A stretch of 64,000 nucleotides of DNA from the NCBI RefSeq assembly GCF_002854065.1, contig NZ_CP024147.1; one strand, written 5' to 3'. A program made the position numbers and the translations under genes. The stretch comes from Escherichia coli (GTDB taxonomy: Bacteria; Pseudomonadota; Gammaproteobacteria; Enterobacterales; Enterobacteriaceae). Under the pieces are notes generated by a model. That model made no database searches and had not been told where the DNA came from. It saw only the letters and a list, made by a program, of their open reading frames with translations. Below, piece after piece: positions 32,783 through 53,495 of the stretch (position 1 is its first letter; each line of letters starts with the position of its first letter).

Positions 32783-32811
32783 TTAACCATTCCCATACAA
32801 TTAGTTAACCA

Positions 32812-32847
32812 AAAAGGGGGGATTTTATCTCCCCTTTAATTTTTCCT
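32812..32847 (+). terminator. Terminator after clpX
   Basis: AGGGGGGA-ttttatc-TCCCCT stem followed by T-rich run. Confidence 0.55.
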
Positions 32848-32969
32848 CTATTCTCGGCGTTGAATGTGGGGGAAACATCCCCATATACTGACGTACATGT
32901 TAATAGATGGCGTGAAGCACAGTCGTGTCATCTGATTACCTGGCGGAAATTAAACTAAGAGAGAGCTCT

Positions 32970-41505: not shown

Positions 41506-42324
41506 ATGGCTCGTCTGGCAGCATTTGATATGGATGGCACTTTATTGATGCCTGACCATCATTTAGGTGAGAAAACCCTCTCTACTTTGGCGCGACTGCG
41601 TGAACGCGACATTACCCTCACTTTTGCCACGGGGCGTCATGCGCTGGAGATGCAGCATATTCTCGGGGCGATATCGCTGGATGCGTATTTGATTACCGGC
41701 AACGGAACGCGCGTGCATTCTCTGGAAGGTGAACTTTTACATCGTGATGATTTACCTGCGGATGTCGCGGAGCTGGTGCTGTATCAGCAATGGGATACCC
41801 GAGCCAGCATGCATATTTTCAATGACGACGGTTGGTTTACCGGGAAAGAGATCCCTGCGTTGTTGCAGGCATTTGTCTATAGCGGTTTTCGTTATCAAAT
41901 AATCGATGTCAAAAAAATGCCACTCGGCAGCGTCACCAAGATCTGCTTCTGTGGCGATCACGACGATCTTACACGCTTGCAGATCCAGCTACACGAAGCA
42001 TTATCCGAGCGTGCACATTTGTGTTTTTCCGCCACGGATTGCCTCGAAGTGCTGCCGGTGGGCTGCAATAAAGGCGCTGCACTGACGGTGCTGACCCAAC
42101 ATTTAGGTTTATCGTTGCGCGATTGCATGGCCTTTGGTGATGCGATGAACGATCGCGAAATGTTAGGCAGCGTCGGTAGCGGATTTATTATGGGCAATGC
42201 GATGCCGCAACTGCGCGCGGAGCTCCCGCATTTACCGGTGATTGGACATTGCCGAAATCAGGCTGTCTCTCACTATTTGACGCACTGGCTGGACTATCCA
42301 CATCTACCTTATTCCCCCGAATAA
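41506..42324 (+). CDS. cof: HAD-family HMP-PP phosphatase Cof
   Basis: ORF begins with GTG at 41494; ATG 41506 gives [14 protein letters not shown]... (272 aa) with HAD DxDGT motif. Confidence 0.9.
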
Positions 42325-42340
42325 CGAGATCCCTTCCAGC

Positions 42341-42366
42341 ACCGGGCAATTGCCCGGTTTTTTTTG
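42341..42366 (+). terminator. Terminator after cof
   Basis: Perfect palindrome ACCGGGCAATTGCCCGGT followed by T8. Confidence 0.7.
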
Positions 42367-42476
42367 CGTTGAATTTGTCATTTTGTGCCGTGGTGTTTAA
42401 ACCGCACAGAATAAATTGTCGTGATTTCACCTTTAAAATAAAATTAAAAGAGAAAAAAATTCTCTGTGGAAGGGCT

Positions 42477-42935
42477 ATGTTAGATAAAATTGACCGTAAG
42501 CTGCTGGCCTTACTGCAGCAGGATTGCACCCTCTCTTTGCAGGCACTGGCTGAAGCCGTTAATCTGACAACCACCCCTTGCTGGAAGCGCCTGAAACGGC
42601 TGGAGGACGACGGTATCCTTATCGGCAAAGTCGCCCTGCTGGATCCGGAAAAAATAGGCCTCGGTCTGACCGCCTTTGTGCTGATAAAAACGCAACATCA
42701 CAGCAGCGAATGGTATTGCCGCTTTGTCACGGTGGTTACCGAAATGCCAGAAGTGCTGGGGTTCTGGCGCATGGCTGGTGAATACGATTATCTGATGCGC
42801 GTCCAGGTTGCCGACATGAAACGCTACGACGAGTTTTATAAGCGTCTGGTAAACAGCGTGCCGGGGCTGTCGGACGTCACTTCCAGCTTCGCGATGGAAC
42901 AGATTAAATACACCACTTCTTTACCCATCGAATAA
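42477..42935 (+). CDS. decR: Lrp/AsnC-family transcriptional regulator DecR (YbaO)
   Basis: ORF 42249..42935 trimmed to ATG 42477 ([31 protein letters not shown]...), 152 aa. Confidence 0.9.
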
Positions 42936-42964
42936 ATATCCAGAATCAGGTCAGGACACAACGC

Positions 42965-46511
<3,547 letters not shown>

Positions 46512-46623
46512 ATAGCGCAATATTTCATCGTTGGTGCAAAAATGTAACGCACTGTGCACTGTCATAGTGCGTTTTCATTTTCAAACTTCTTAACTTCCTG
46601 CTCTCTTTCTCATTTTTCATTTC

Positions 46624-46639
46624 TGGCACACCGCTTGCA
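46624..46639 (+). promoter_or_regulatory. Sigma54 promoter (-24/-12) of glnK-amtB
   Basis: TGGCAC-accgc-TTGCA, exact GG-N10-GC spacing, about 55 bp upstream of glnK ATG. Confidence 0.65.
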
Positions 46640-46691
46640 ATATCTTCTTCGTGTAGCAGAACCATTACCGAATTCTGACCGGAGGGGATCT

Positions 46692-47030
46692 ATGAAGCTG
46701 GTGACCGTGATAATCAAACCATTCAAGCTGGAAGACGTTCGTGAAGCGTTATCTTCCATTGGTATTCAGGGCCTGACCGTCACCGAAGTGAAAGGTTTCG
46801 GGCGTCAGAAAGGGCATGCCGAGCTGTACCGGGGGGCGGAATACAGCGTCAACTTCCTGCCAAAAGTAAAAATTGATGTGGCGATTGCTGATGACCAACT
46901 CGATGAAGTGATCGATATCGTCAGTAAGGCGGCTTACACCGGAAAAATTGGCGACGGCAAAATCTTTGTCGCTGAATTGCAACGCGTCATTCGTATTCGT
47001 ACCGGCGAAGCCGACGAAGCGGCGCTGTAA
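46692..47030 (+). CDS. glnK: Nitrogen regulatory protein PII-2
   Basis: ORF 46554..47030 trimmed to ATG 46692 (MKLVTVIIKPFKLEDVREAL...), 112 aa. Confidence 0.97.
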   Translation: MKLVTVIIKPFKLEDVREALSSIGIQGLTVTEVKGFGRQKGHAELYRGAEYSVNFLPKVKIDVAIADDQLDEVIDIVSKAAYTGKIGDGKIFVAELQRVIRIRTGEADEAAL

Positions 47031-47059
47031 TCTCTGGCACACAGCAACAGGAACGAAAA

Positions 47060-48346
47060 ATGAAGATAGCGACGATAAAAACTGGGCTTGCTTCACTGGC
47101 GATGCTGCCGGGACTGGTAATGGCTGCACCTGCGGTGGCCGATAAAGCCGACAATGCGTTTATGATGATCTGTACTGCGCTAGTGCTGTTTATGACTATT
47201 CCGGGGATTGCCCTGTTTTACGGTGGGTTGATTCGCGGCAAAAACGTGCTGTCGATGCTGACGCAGGTGACGGTGACATTTGCACTGGTCTGTATTCTCT
47301 GGGTGGTTTACGGTTACTCGCTGGCGTTTGGTGAGGGCAACAACTTCTTCGGCAACATTAACTGGTTGATGCTGAAAAACATCGAACTGACGGCGGTGAT
47401 GGGCAGCATTTATCAGTATATCCACGTGGCGTTTCAGGGATCGTTTGCCTGCATTACCGTAGGCTTGATAGTTGGGGCGCTGGCGGAACGAATCCGCTTC
47501 TCAGCTGTGTTGATTTTCGTGGTGGTATGGCTGACGCTCTCTTACATTCCGATTGCGCATATGGTCTGGGGCGGTGGTTTGCTGGCTTCTCACGGTGCGC
47601 TGGATTTCGCGGGTGGCACCGTGGTGCACATTAACGCCGCAATCGCCGGTCTGGTGGGCGCGTATCTGATAGGCAAACGCGTGGGCTTCGGCAAAGAGGC
47701 GTTTAAACCGCACAACCTGCCGATGGTCTTCACCGGGACTGCCATTCTCTATATCGGTTGGTTTGGCTTTAACGCCGGGTCAGCGGGCACGGCGAATGAA
47801 ATCGCGGCACTGGCATTTGTGAATACTGTGGTCGCAACGGCGGCGGCAATTCTTGGCTGGATCTTCGGTGAATGGGCGCTGCGTGGTAAGCCTTCACTGC
47901 TGGGGGCGTGTTCTGGCGCGATTGCCGGTCTGGTCGGCGTGACGCCAGCGTGTGGCTACATTGGTGTTGGCGGCGCGTTGATTATCGGCGTGGTAGCTGG
48001 TCTGGCGGGCTTGTGGGGCGTTACCATGCTCAAACGCTTGCTGCGGGTGGATGATCCCTGCGATGTCTTCGGTGTGCACGGCGTTTGTGGCATTGTCGGC
48101 TGTATCATGACCGGGATTTTTGCCGCCAGCTCGCTGGGCGGCGTGGGCTTCGCTGAAGGTGTGACGATGGGCCATCAGTTGCTGGTACAGTTGGAAAGCA
48201 TTGCCATTACGATCGTCTGGTCCGGTGTGGTGGCATTTATTGGCTACAAACTGGCGGATCTGACGGTTGGCCTGCGTGTGCCGGAAGAACAAGAGCGAGA
48301 AGGGCTGGACGTCAACAGTCACGGCGAGAATGCCTATAACGCGTAA
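47060..48346 (+). CDS. amtB: Ammonium transporter AmtB
   Basis: 428 aa with signal peptide MKIATIKTGLASLAMLPGLVMA and 11-TM Amt fold. Confidence 0.97.
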   Translation: MKIATIKTGLASLAMLPGLVMAAPAVADKADNAFMMICTALVLFMTIPGIALFYGGLIRGKNVLSMLTQVTVTFALVCILWVVYGYSLAFGEGNNFFGNINWLMLKNIELTAVMGSIYQYIHVAFQGSFACITVGLIVGALAERIRFSAVLIFVVVWLTLSYIPIAHMVWGGGLLASHGALDFAGGTVVHINAAIAGLVGAYLIGKRVGFGKEAFKPHNLPMVFTGTAILYIGWFGFNAGSAGTANEIAALAFVNTVVATAAAILGWIFGEWALRGKPSLLGACSGAIAGLVGVTPACGYIGVGGALIIGVVAGLAGLWGVTMLKRLLRVDDPCDVFGVHGVCGIVGCIMTGIFAASSLGGVGFAEGVTMGHQLLVQLESIAITIVWSGVVAFIGYKLADLTVGLRVPEEQEREGLDVNSHGENAYNA

Positions 48347-48363
48347 CAAGCACTGCAAAAAAC

Positions 48364-48397
48364 AGCCGGACGGTTTTCACCTCCGGCTATTTTTTTA
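48364..48397. terminator. Bidirectional terminator between convergent amtB and tesB
   Basis: GCCGGA ... TCCGGC stem flanked by A6 upstream and T7 downstream. Confidence 0.55.
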
Positions 48398-49255
48398 ATT
48401 GTGATTACGCATCACCCCTTCCTGAACGGTCGAGGCAACCAGTACGCCGTCCTGGGTATAAAACTCACCGCGCACAAAGCCACGTGCGCTGGACGCCGAG
48501 GTGCTCTCCACGCTATACAGCAGCCATTCATTCAAATTAAACGGGCGATGGAACCACATGGAATGGTCAATGGTGGCAATCTGAATCCCCGGTTCGAGAA
48601 AACCGATGCCGTGCGGCTGTAGAGCTACCGGCAGGAAGTTAAGATCAGAAGCGTAACCGAGCAGATACTGATGAACGCGCAGGTCATCCGGCACGCTACC
48701 ATTTGCGCGGATCCACACCTGACGATGTGGTTCTGCGACGTGACCTTTCAGTGGGTTATGAAACTCCACCGGACGGACTTCCAGCGGACGATCGCAGATG
48801 AATTTATCTTTCAGCACTGGCGGCAGCAGGTGCGCCAGCGACTGGGCGATTTGCGTTTCCGAAGGCAGGCCATCAGGCGCTGGCGCGGACGGCATTGTTT
48901 TTTGATGTTCGAAACCCGCTTCTGGTGCCTGGAAAGAGGCCGTCATATAAAAAATCGGTTTGCCGTTTTGAATAGCAGCAACCCGGCGGGCGCTGAAGCT
49001 GTTACCGTCACGCAGCGTTTCGACATCATAAATAATCGGCTTCTTACTATCGCCAGGGCGAAGAAAGTAGCTGTGAAACGAATGTACCAGCCGCTCTTCA
49101 GGGACGGTCTCTTTTGCAGCATACAAGGCCTGACCCACGACCTGGCCGCCAAACACCTGGCGTAAACCTAAATCTTCACTCTGGCCGCGAAAGAGTCCTT
49201 CCTCAATTTTTTCCAGATTTAACAATGTCAGTAAATTTTTTAGCGCCTGACTCAT
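48395..49255 (-). CDS. tesB: Acyl-CoA thioesterase II
   Basis: ORF 48395..49273 trimmed to ATG 49255 ([24 protein letters not shown]...), 286 aa. Confidence 0.93.
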
Positions 49256-49472
49256 ATAACTCTCCAGTAACAAAGCTGCCGCAGCAAGCCAAAGTGAGTT
49301 GAGTATAACGCAAATTTGCTACTGGTCCGATGGGTGCAATGGTCTGAATTACGGGCTAATTACAGGCAGAAATGCGTGATGTGTGCCACACTTGTTGACG
49401 TTACTATTTTGTTAACCACTCTTCCGGCGAGGAAAGTTAGCCCGCTGGTGCATTGATAATAAGGAGAAATGA

Positions 49473-50045
49473 ATGAAACTCGTGCACATGGCCAGTGGTT
49501 TAGCGGTTGCGATTGCGTTGGCGGCTTGCGCAGATAAAAGCGCGGATATTCAGACGCCAGCCCCGGCTGCAAATACGTCTATTTCAGCAACACAACAACC
49601 TGCTATCCAGCAACCGAATGTCTTCGGTACCGTCTGGATCCGTCAGAAAGTCGCACTGCCGCCTGATGCTGTGCTGACCGTGACACTTTCTGACGCGTCG
49701 TTAGCCGATGCACCGTCAAAAGTGCTGGCGCAGAAAGCGGTGCGTACTGAAGGTAAACAGTCACCATTCAGCTTTGTTCTGCCATTTAACCCGGCAGATG
49801 TTCAGCCGAACGCGCGTATTCTGTTGAGTGCGGCGATTACCGTGAATGACAAACTGGTATTTATCACCGATACCGTTCAGCCGGTGATCAACCAGGGCGG
49901 AACTAAAGCCGACCTGACATTGGTGCCGGTACAGCAAACCGCCGTGCCGGTTCAGGCCAGCGGTGGCGCAACGACTACCGTACCTTCGACTTCACCAACT
50001 CAGGTGAATCCGTCTTCGGCAGTTCCAGCTCCTACGCAATATTAA
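49473..50045 (+). CDS. ybaY: Lipoprotein YbaY
   Basis: 190 aa with lipobox LAAC. Confidence 0.88.
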   Translation: MKLVHMASGLAVAIALAACADKSADIQTPAPAANTSISATQQPAIQQPNVFGTVWIRQKVALPPDAVLTVTLSDASLADAPSKVLAQKAVRTEGKQSPFSFVLPFNPADVQPNARILLSAAITVNDKLVFITDTVQPVINQGGTKADLTLVPVQQTAVPVQASGGATTTVPSTSPTQVNPSSAVPAPTQY

Positions 50046-50053
50046 GCGACGTT

Positions 50054-50077
50054 AACCCTCTCCGCCCGGAGAGGGTT
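50054..50077. terminator. Hairpin between convergent ybaY and atl
   Basis: AACCCTCTCC-gccc-GGAGAGGGTT perfect inverted repeat. Confidence 0.55.
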
Positions 50078-50465
50078 AGTAGTTCCAGCGATAACGCTGC
50101 AAGTCGATTTGCCCGCTTCCCGATACCATCACACCTTCTGCCAGTAATGCCTGTCGCTGACGCTGTAAATCCGGTCCGGTTAGCGAAATTGTGCCGTGGC
50201 GATTAACCACCCGGTGCCAGGGTAAGGTGCTGCCTTCAGGGAGACGCTTTAACACACCGCCCACCTGGCGCGCGGCGCGGGGCGATCCCGCCAGTTTCGC
50301 CACATCACCGTAAGTGGTTACATAGCCTTCGGGAATAGCGGCGACGATTTGCCAGACGCGTTGGGGAAATGAATCTTCTTTTTCCATCTTTTCTTCCTGA
50401 GTTAATTTTTCAGCATAATCTGGAAAAACGCCCGAGTGAAGCCGCATTGCGCAAGAAACCAGCAT
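50076..50465 (-). CDS. atl: DNA base-flipping alkyltransferase-like protein Atl (YbaZ)
   Basis: ORF 50076..50486; likely ATG at 50465 (129 aa); O6-alkylguanine-DNA-alkyltransferase-like fold lacking catalytic Cys (PWHRVVN). Confidence 0.8.
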   Translation of the reverse strand: MLVSCAMRLHSGVFPDYAEKLTQEEKMEKEDSFPQRVWQIVAAIPEGYVTTYGDVAKLAGSPRAARQVGGVLKRLPEGSTLPWHRVVNRHGTISLTGPDLQRQRQALLAEGVMVSGSGQIDLQRYRWNY

Positions 50466-50541
50466 CTGGCACGCAATGGGTTGCAATTAGCCGGGGCAGC
50501 AGTGATAATGCGCCTGCGCGTTGGTTCTCAACGCTCTCAAT

Positions 50542-50655
50542 GGGGGCTCTGTTGGTTCTCCCGCAACGCTACTCTGTTTACCAGGTCAGGTCCGGAAGGA
50601 AGCAGCCAAGGCAGATGACGCGTGTGCCGGGATGTAGCTGGCAGGGCCCCCACCC
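50542..50655 (+). ncRNA. ffs: 4.5S RNA (signal recognition particle RNA)
   Basis: 114-nt stretch GGGGGCTCTGTTGGTTCTCCCGCAACGC...GGCAGGGCCCCCACCC matches remembered 4.5S RNA; located between atl and ybaA as in K-12. Confidence 0.92.
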
Positions 50656-50765
50656 ATTTCTGCCTCCCACCGTTTCGTCAAAAAATCCCAACATGGCTAA
50701 ACTTTAACCACAACTGACGTCGCAAGAATTGTCTGGCTGCGCAGTACGCTTCGGAGGTATGTCTG

Positions 50766-51119
50766 ATGAAGTATGTTGATGGTTTTGTGGTTGCCGTTCC
50801 TGCCGATAAAAAGGATGCCTATCGGGAAATGGCCGCTAAGGCCGCGCCATTGTTTAAAGAGTTTGGCGCGCTTCGTATTGTCGAATGCTGGGCCAGCGAT
50901 GTACCGGATGGCAAAGTGACCGATTTTCGTATGGCGGTGAAAGCGGAAGAGAATGAAGAGGTTGTCTTTAGCTGGATTGAATACCCTTCAAAAGAGGTCC
51001 GCGACGCAGCTAATCAAAAGATGATGTCGGACCCACGGATGAAAGAGTTCGGCGAGTCCATGCCGTTTGACGGCAAGCGAATGATCTATGGCGGATTCGA
51101 GTCAATCATCGACGAATAG
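50766..51119 (+). CDS. ybaA: DUF1428 family protein YbaA
   Basis: 117-aa ORF MKYVDGFVVAVPADKKDAYREMAAK... Confidence 0.88.
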   Translation: MKYVDGFVVAVPADKKDAYREMAAKAAPLFKEFGALRIVECWASDVPDGKVTDFRMAVKAEENEEVVFSWIEYPSKEVRDAANQKMMSDPRMKEFGESMPFDGKRMIYGGFESIIDE

Positions 51120-51160: not shown

Positions 51161-52216
51161 TCACAAATGTTGCTCGGCCCAGCGTAAGAAATCTTCTTTC
51201 GGTAATGCCTTGCTGTAGAGCCAGCCCTGACCGTAGTGCACGCCATGCTGGCGTAGCCACTCTTCTTGTTTACTGGTTTCGATTCCCTCCGCTACTATTT
51301 TCAGTTTCAGTGTTTTTGCCATTTCGATGATATGCGGCGTGACATTTTTATATTCCAGCGCATCAACGAAAGATTTATCGATCTTCAGAATGTCGACATC
51401 CAGATCCTGTAAATAACTTAAACTTGAATACCCCGTACCAAAATCATCAAGATAAATTTCATGGCCCGCCTCCCGGTAGCGAGAAATTATCGGGGCGCTG
51501 GTTTTCGGATCGGCAAACTCGCGTTCAGTGAGTTCAAGCGCGATCTGTCTGGGATTAACCTGATAGTGATTGATCATTTCACGCAGCAATTGCGGGATTT
51601 TTTCCGAGGTGAGCACGGTGGATTCAAGATTGATCGAAATATGCTGCTGTGGATGCTGACGCAGCCAGTCGCCCATATCTTCAAAGACGCTTCTTATAAT
51701 CAGTAGCGTCAATGGCTCAGAAAGGCCCGTTTGCTGTGCCAGCGGAATAAAACTATCTGGTGACAACCAACTACCGTCTGTCTGCGGCCAGCGCGCCAGT
51801 GCCTCAGCACCGACAATTTTGCCATTGGCTAAGGAGACAATCGGCTGATAGTGCACGCAAATATCACGATTTTCGATAGCATCCTGCAGCCGATGATGCG
51901 GTGACTGGATGCGGCGCAAAATGCGCAGCACAAACATCGCTGCCAGCAGGCCAATCACCAACCCGAGCGGTAACCAAATAAAGACTTGCCGATGCCAGCC
52001 TTTCTGCAACATTTTCGATGAAGCCCAGGTGATAATTGAAATATTCATCTCCGGGAAGGGCAGGATATCGTAAATGATTCCATTATTTTCGATATGCTCA
52101 CCGGGTGTTTTTTGTAGCCTGGTAATAATTCCCTGACCAATTTCATCGCTGCTGGTTATGACAACGTTATGGGCATTGCCAATAATGGCGGCATCAATTT
52201 GCCATGAGCTATAGGG
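51161..52216 (-). pseudogene. pdeB: pdeB (ylaB) c-di-GMP phosphodiesterase, C-terminal fragment (EAL domain) truncated by IS1
   Basis: EAL-domain ORF 51161..52048; hand translation shows the frame stays open upstream to the IS1 junction at 52216 (…PYSSWQIDAAIIGNAHNVV…). Confidence 0.8.
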
Positions 52217-52271
52217 GGTGATGCTGCCAACTTACTGATTTAGTGTATGATGGTGTTTTTGAGGTGCTCCA

Positions 52272-52547
52272 GTGGCTTCTGTTTCTATCAGCTGTCCCTC
52301 CTGTTCAGCTACTGACGGGGTGGTGCGTAACGGCAAAAGCACTGCCGGACATCAGCGCTATCTCTGCTCTCACTGCCGTAAAACATGGCAACTGCAGTTC
52401 ACTTACACCGCTTCTCAACCCGGTACGCACCAGAAAATCATTGATATGGCCATGAATGGCGTTGGATGCCGGGCAACCGCCCGCATTATGGGCGTTGGCC
52501 TCAACACGATTTTCCGCCATTTAAAAAACTCAGGCCGCAGTCGGTAA
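52272..52547 (+). CDS. insA: IS1 protein InsA
   Basis: GTG-initiated 91-aa [38 protein letters not shown]... Confidence 0.93.
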
Positions 52548-52969
52548 CCTCGCGCATACAGCCGGGCAGTGACGTCATCGTCTGCGCGGAAATGGACGAA
52601 CAGTGGGGATACGTCGGGGCTAAATCGCGCCAGCGCTGGCTGTTTTACGCGTATGACAGGCTCCGGAAGACGGTTGTTGCGCACGTATTCGGTGAACGCA
52701 CTATGGCGACGCTGGGGCGTCTTATGAGCCTGCTGTCACCCTTTGACGTGGTGATATGGATGACGGATGGCTGGCCGCTGTATGAATCCCGCCTGAAGGG
52801 AAAGCTGCACGTAATCAGCAAGCGATATACGCAGCGAATTGAGCGGCATAACCTGAATCTGAGGCAGCACCTGGCACGGCTGGGACGGAAGTCGCTGTCG
52901 TTCTCAAAATCGGTGGAGCTGCATGACAAAGTCATCGGGCATTATCTGAACATAAAACACTATCAATAA
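52466..52969 (+). CDS. insB: IS1 InsB' frame (expressed as InsAB' transposase by -1 frameshift)
   Basis: 167-aa ORF in the -1 frame relative to insA; A6C slippery motif at 52523..52529. Confidence 0.9.
52523..52529 (+). promoter_or_regulatory. IS1 programmed -1 ribosomal frameshift motif (A6C)
   Basis: AAAAAAC within TTTAAAAAACTC in insA/insB' overlap. Confidence 0.7.
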
Positions 52970-52984
52970 GTTGGAGTCATTACC

Positions 52985-53495
52985 AGCTATAGGGAATGAC
53001 ATCAATAAAGGAAGCGGGGTCGATCATGACGACATAATGTGCCGTTCCCATGGCGACCATGTAACGGATAATGCCTAAATCGTTATGTGATGTTAACCAG
53101 ACACGATAACCATCTTTCGAAATTTTACCTGGCTCGGGGAAGGTATCGGGCGGACTTTCATGCTCCAGAGACGAACACTGGGGAACGTTGTTATCGATAT
53201 AAACCACTTCCTGAATATAGCGATAACTGTAAGATACCCGACGCATTTCCATGAGATGGGCTTCGCTACAGGCAGCGCCTTGCCATCTTTCCAGCTCTTG
53301 CATCGCATCTTTCCCTTGTGTCGCCACCTTATTGGCCCGAATAGCGACGCGGGAGGAATAGGTATCCAGCTCTTCAATAAACGATGTTTCTACCTGCTGA
53401 TGGGCCAGCCAGATGCTTAAGCCGACAGGCAGCAATACTGAAAGAATCAGTACTCCCGAAATAAGGCCGACCAGATGTCGTGTTCTCACCAGCAT
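52985..53495 (-). pseudogene. pdeB: pdeB (ylaB) N-terminal fragment (periplasmic CSS-motif sensor domain) truncated by IS1
   Basis: ORF 52980..53495 (MLVRTRHLVGLISGVLILSVLLPVG...), runs into IS1 right end; last codons before junction encode PYS, duplicated at the other junction. Confidence 0.8.

Follow-up and report, generated by a model that had tools for sequence, protein, structure and literature searches.

The 4.5S RNA gene ffs in a 64-kb stretch of Escherichia coli DNA and a candidate island attachment site at its 3' end

Positions 50542-50655 of the window (the whole 64,000-nucleotide stretch of Escherichia coli DNA analysed here, from contig NZ_CP024147.1) raise the question of whether they hold an RNA gene, part of a protein-coding gene or a decayed fragment, and whether the same sequence also serves as a landing site for mobile DNA. 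An earlier note on this DNA had read the 114-nt 4.5S RNA gene ffs at these coordinates, between atl and ybaA, and had named an Rfam scan with RF00169 as the check. The sequence GGGGGCTCTG...GGCCCCCACCC occupies exactly 50542-50655 of the plus strand (114 nt; the same plus-strand gene is read there as GGGGGCTCTGTTGGTTCTCCCGCAACGC...GCTGGCAGGGCCCCCACCC), and is identical at 114 of 114 positions to the curated ncRNA ffs of K-12 MG1655 (b0455, NC_000913.3 476448-476561), which bears out the gene, its length and its exact coordinates. The Rfam scan places RF00169 at 50550-50646, covering model positions 1-97 of 97 at 68.1 bits, where the gathering score is 40, and with an E value of 5.5e-13; the match is real and far beyond chance, and the score lies above the cut-off for membership of the small SRP RNA family. 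The divergent neighbour, on the minus strand at 50076-50465, is ybaZ/atl, an alkyltransferase-like DNA base-flipping protein (K-12 annotation; PF01035, 94.4 bits), and the downstream neighbour, on the plus strand at 50766-51119, is ybaA (DUF1428; K-12 annotation; PF07237, 163 bits). The placement between the two genes thus agrees with K-12 annotation, open reading frames (ORFs) and Pfam matches alike; the order atl-ffs-ybaA is that of K-12, and both sequence and synteny identify the locus as the ortholog of the characterised E. coli ffs.

The identity with K-12 extends beyond the mature RNA. A 324-nt alignment shows no difference in the 110-nt spacer between ffs and ybaA, or in the 66 nt that immediately precede the mature 5' end and hold the promoter and leader. 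The two substitutions both lie further upstream, 67 and 100 nt from the mature 5' end, and mark the window as coming from a strain other than K-12. The closest complete genomes around ffs (3 kb; 514 bp), among the matches listed, are CUWW06 and TB06052. On the basis of K-12 identity, the RF00169 match, the fold and covariation, it is virtually certain that 50542-50655 is ffs, the single-copy 4.5S RNA gene, whose product is the RNA component of the bacterial signal recognition particle (SRP). Few RNA genes of E. coli are as well known as ffs; the gene for the partner protein, ffh, is absent from the 64-kb window.

The minimum free energy fold of ffs is one long imperfect hairpin of -57 kcal/mol, with a z score of -3.15 against dinucleotide shuffles. 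A scan with the exact 24-mer of the apical core (GGTCAGGTCCGGAAGGAAGCAGCC), restricted to one genome per species, returned at least 120 loci from Proteobacteria, Actinomycetota, Bacillota, Chloroflexota, Planctomycetota and other phyla; most of these fold as the same type of hairpin although their stem sequences differ greatly. An alignment was built from 15 sequences with the E. coli architecture, comprising members from Enterobacter, Superficieibacter, Citrobacter, Pseudomonas, Stutzerimonas, Rheinheimera, Haemophilus, Vibrio and an uncultured gammaproteobacterium together with two E. coli variants. With the E. coli structure imposed, standard pairs make up 93.3% of its cells, a share that drops to 38-50% once partners are displaced by 1-3 columns, and compensatory (both-sided) changes occur in 20 of the 42 pairs; none of 500 column shuffles reached the observed value on any of five measures. 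RNAalifold independently arrives at this hairpin and counts 18 compensated pairs; ffs therefore shows the hairpin with compensatory changes that characterises small SRP RNAs.

The domain IV core (nt 43-66 of the RNA; 50584-50607, plus strand) is invariant in all 15 aligned sequences and carries the GGAA tetraloop at 50594-50597; the conserved apex of domain IV, a GNRA tetraloop with conserved internal loops, is accordingly present, and we take it to be the Ffh-binding region. A second motif, the distal GUGCCG (nt 83-88; 50624-50629, plus strand), occupies alignment columns G83-G88, which are also invariant, and is presumably where the Ffh-FtsY GTPase complex docks. In comparison with the small SRP RNAs of RF00169, ffs shares the GGAA tetraloop and the domain IV loops and matches the full model; the large bacterial SRP RNA (Bacillus-type scRNA) has the same 24-nt apical core, and loci from Bacillus and Paenibacillus were recovered by the scan. 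The E. coli RNA is known as the minimal hairpin, lacking the Alu domain of Bacillus-type scRNA.

An ORF-based view of this region gives a different picture. The mechanical ORF list does contain frames over ffs, namely a 112-aa ORF (50369-50707, plus strand) that spans both gene and promoter, and overlapping ORFs of 31-60 aa, on which a case could be made that 50542-50655 belongs to a protein-coding gene. Pfam gives no family for the 112-aa ORF, K-12 and the PGAP genomes inspected carry no annotation for any of the overlapping ORFs, and substitutions between species pair across the hairpin without a codon-position pattern; a coding function is next to impossible, and the 112-aa frame is considered spurious. 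The statement in the earlier note that ffs is missing from the ORF track is correct insofar as the RNA gene itself is unlisted, but the region is not blank, as it is covered by this frame. The locus is thus an annotation case in which an essential, highly expressed RNA gene lies where an ORF view gives either nothing or a false 112-aa ORF. Automated RNA annotation also departs from the curated gene: PGAP SRP_RNA features (for example 1709-1805 of locus L001) are 97 nt long, the span of the Rfam model, and since the curated 114-nt E. coli RNA exceeds the RF00169 model by 8 nt at the 5' end and by 9 nt at the 3' end, such calls under-call ffs. PGAP also calls atl at 103 aa, compared with 129 aa in K-12.

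Copy number and allelic variation were compared across 5426 complete E. coli genomes, using the 514-bp atl-ffs-ybaA segment and the 114 nt alone as queries. The segment was matched in 5424 of the 5426, with the underlying feature annotated as "ffs: signal recognition particle sRNA small type", and the 114-nt gene is present in exactly one copy per genome in the same number (5424/5426), at an identity of at least 99% in 5420 and below 99% in only four. E. coli EC77 and P15-25 have rare alleles, one with a 3-nt CTC duplication after nt 30, which gives a 117-nt gene, and the other with G99A. Both are compatible with the structure; G99A turns the U12-G99 wobble into a U-A pair, and the CTC duplication falls inside an internal loop. 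These counts also bear on the idea that the interval merely resembles an SRP RNA by chance or decay, as a pseudogene or a fragment of a mobile element. Some E. coli genomes do contain pieces of the ffs 3' end, 17-21 nt long, as attachment-site duplicates at island ends. The copy in the window, however, is full length and identical to that of K-12, it has its promoter and the conserved setting between atl and ybaA, its Rfam E value is that given above, and each of 5424 genomes yielded just one full-length copy. A decayed or chance origin is therefore extremely improbable, and the interval is treated below as the functional ffs gene. The gene also appears, unannotated, in 12 PLSDB "plasmid" records of 0.1-5.4 Mb, all of them non-mobilizable; given their size and non-mobilizable status, these are most likely mislabelled pieces of chromosome, and plasmid-borne ffs was rejected.

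Upstream of ffs, consensus matching and the literature point to a sigma-70-like promoter (50481-50509, plus strand) with a -35 box TTGCAA at 50481-50486, a 17-nt spacer and a -10 box GATAAT at 50504-50509; this is the only promoter-like site within 50200-51000, and the G+C-rich stretch GCGCCTGCG comes right after the -10 box. By RNA-seq, the majority of pre-4.5S 5' ends in K-12 map to -26 (PMC5499578), while earlier reports describe leaders of 22-24 nt (PMC5499578, PMC7049720); the leader is removed by RNase P, and 5'-extended RNA still supports viability (PMC5499578, PMC7049720). Position -26 corresponds to 50516 in the window, 7 nt past the -10 box, and because the sequence there equals that of K-12 the same start is inferred, which would place the 5' leader of pre-4.5S RNA (22-26 nt by report) at 50516-50541 on the plus strand. 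The leader sequence as a whole is that of K-12, where RNase P cleavage is documented, and when 50518-50765 is folded it makes a small hairpin of its own. A search 3' of ffs revealed no canonical intrinsic terminator; the sole terminator-like site, 50533-50547, lies inside the leader and 5' end of the gene, is within chance expectation and was discarded.

The 3' end of 4.5S RNA is trimmed by exoribonucleases, the RNA binds Ffh through its apical domain, and the SRP delivers ribosomes that are making inner-membrane proteins to FtsY. In the window, transcription of ffs from the sigma-70 promoter would start some 26 nt upstream and give a short precursor, whose 5' leader would be cut off by RNase P and whose 3' end would be trimmed by exonucleases. 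Once mature, the 114-nt RNA is predicted to fold into one long imperfect hairpin, whose apex (GGAA and two internal loops) would bind Ffh, and the resulting particle would recognise signal sequences of nascent inner-membrane proteins and hand the ribosome to FtsY. The essentiality of ffs is documented (PMC7049720, PMC5499578).

The 3' end of the gene appears to have an additional role. The last 17-21 nt of ffs, together with 4-5 nt downstream (50635-50660; no strand assigned), form a candidate attB core, as judged from repeats in other genomes; in the window this site is unoccupied, and the normal ffs-ybaA spacer follows directly. In 64 of the 5426 genomes the 514-bp segment is not covered to 80% in one piece, and 58 of these have it in two places. 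Four of the 64 interrupted genomes were inspected; sampling went by the weakest record for each of two query frames, and occurrences across the genomes were then tallied by integrase type. In all four the 114-nt ffs is intact and a tyrosine integrase gene (PF00589) begins approximately 100-220 nt past it; in all three that retain both island ends, direct repeats of 22-29 bp equal to the 3' end of ffs are found. The combination expected of an occupied attB, an adjacent integrase with repeats of the target 3' end at both island ends, is thus seen in genomes other than the window.

In strain 20220828076 (NZ_CP151161.1) the match to the window stops at 50659, 4 nt past ffs, and is followed by an integrase (PF00589) and about 31 kb of foreign DNA before ybaA; the island carries IS26 and the multidrug resistance genes floR, qnrS2, blaOXA-1, aac(6')-Ib-cr, catB3 and arr, and its 25-bp repeat TAGCTGGCAGGGCCCCCACCCATTT consists of ffs nt 94-114 plus ATTT (50635-50659; family A). 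Strain PS2Canimalfeces3 (NZ_CP180604.1) has the backbone of the same island without the resistance region, 10.8 kb in length, with a 29-bp repeat from 50635; it encodes an integrase, a HigB toxin, an ImmA/IrrE peptidase and a serine recombinase. A second integrase type, with 44% identity to the first, is found in the other two genomes. GF31 (NZ_CP172152.1) contains an intact 12.7-kb island with the 22-bp repeat TGGCAGGGCCCCCACCCATTTC (50639-50660; family B) and a cargo of a serine recombinase, several DUF proteins, an HNH endonuclease, IS3 and a type III restriction subunit; KSC1031 (NZ_CP019560.1) retains a remnant of integrase and IS3 with the far end lost, and ybaA and part of pdeB are deleted.

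The first integrase type was found in only two of the 5426 genomes, even with a word-11 search, and the second in 62, which together equal the count of 64 interrupted genomes. A word-11 search with the ffs 3' end returned 113 additional copies of at least about 21 nt in the genome set, a single genome holding as many as three. That the 3' end (50635-50660) also functions as an attachment site for integrase-encoding islands, in addition to rather than instead of its role in 4.5S RNA, is considered likely: the atl-ffs-ybaA locus is interrupted in the genomes counted above, integrases and 3'-end repeats adjoin it, extra 3'-end copies occur, and homologous integrases adjoin the SRP RNA gene in two other species. 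Weighing against this are the scale of the inspection, four of 64 genomes judged from sequence, and the state of the window itself, which has no island, so that attachment is here a potential of the sequence and not something present. Among approximately 120 loci from other species, the two species with an adjoining integrase homologue, Citrobacter werkmanii and Stutzerimonas urumqiensis (NZ_RBZQ01000004.1), both have it about 65 nt past the SRP RNA gene. Stutzerimonas urumqiensis also has a second, nearly full-length SRP RNA copy about 10 kb downstream, in which the first 8 nt or so differ; this arrangement suggests an island with a duplicated attachment segment of about 100 nt. A phage origin of the ffs-targeting elements was considered and found no support: ffs occurs in a single "phage" record, OR845144.1 (UNVERIFIED_ORG), whose sequence is host DNA that runs colinear with positions 41847-50982 of the window, and exact matches to the attachment core were absent from the viral contigs of IMG/VR.

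The E. coli islands resemble those at the 3' ends of tRNA and tmRNA genes (P4 at tRNA-Leu; ssrA elements), which likewise have an adjacent integrase, a short repeat of the RNA 3' end and a regenerated target, but differ from them in that the target is the SRP RNA gene. The gene ffs itself has been reported as a target elsewhere: phage phiEf11 targets it in Enterococcus faecalis, altering the last 17 nt of the RNA, and it is predicted as an island target in Streptococcus pneumoniae (PMC12540744); it is also the homing site of type I-F3b CRISPR-associated Tn7-like transposons (CASTs; PMC11406308). The landing site is shared with phiEf11 and with the CASTs, but the former is a phage of a Gram-positive host that alters the RNA and the latter are RNA-guided transposons, whereas the E. 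coli islands are 11-31 kb in length, use a tyrosine integrase and leave the RNA unchanged. The Islander approach covers tRNA and tmRNA genes only, and no mention of ffs, SRP or 4.5S was found in the TIGER island-mapping paper and the supplements searched; a literature search of partial coverage found no published description of these E. coli ffs islands, which is weak evidence of novelty. It is a tentative and rather doubtful proposition that 50635-50660 is both real and new as an active, so far undescribed E. coli attachment site for a family of small tyrosine-integrase islands present in approximately 1.2% of complete genomes. If true, the SRP RNA gene would join tRNA and tmRNA genes as a stable-RNA island target in enterobacteria. 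As a recurrent landing site of which one example holds resistance genes, the locus is worth checking in island mapping. The island strains further provide a natural experiment on the sequence needed downstream of ffs; with an essential gene and islands that substitute all sequence past +4/+5, 4.5S RNA function evidently does not depend on what lies further downstream.

The earlier note had also recognised no other RNA gene in the window. This holds for tRNA and rRNA, as ARAGORN found no tRNA or tmRNA and Rfam no rRNA within the 64 kb, but not for small RNAs, where Rfam reports sraA (RF02029) above its cut-off at 32803-32898 on the minus strand, in the clpX-lon spacer (106.7 bits against a gathering score of 56). 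The match ends in a hairpin and U-run at 32834-32818; on the opposite strand the hairpin is a terminator-like site after clpX. SraA/psrA/t15 has been listed between clpX and lon (PMC3384567); the K-12 RefSeq record and one PGAP-annotated genome have no sraA feature at that spacer, and the gene status of sraA is therefore uncertain. Two further candidates of a permissive Rfam scan, Thr_leader (28.8 against 55) and SorX (23.8 against 46.6), are below threshold and were taken as chance.

Further downstream in the window, pdeB (a cyclic-di-GMP phosphodiesterase) is split by a 768-bp IS1 at 52217-52984, which has insA and insB ORFs, terminal inverted repeats and the 9-bp target duplication GCTATAGGG at 52208-52216 and 52986-52994. 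In CUWW06, the closest strain around ffs among the matches listed, pdeB is intact, and from this sequence comparison the IS1 insertion looks strain-specific.
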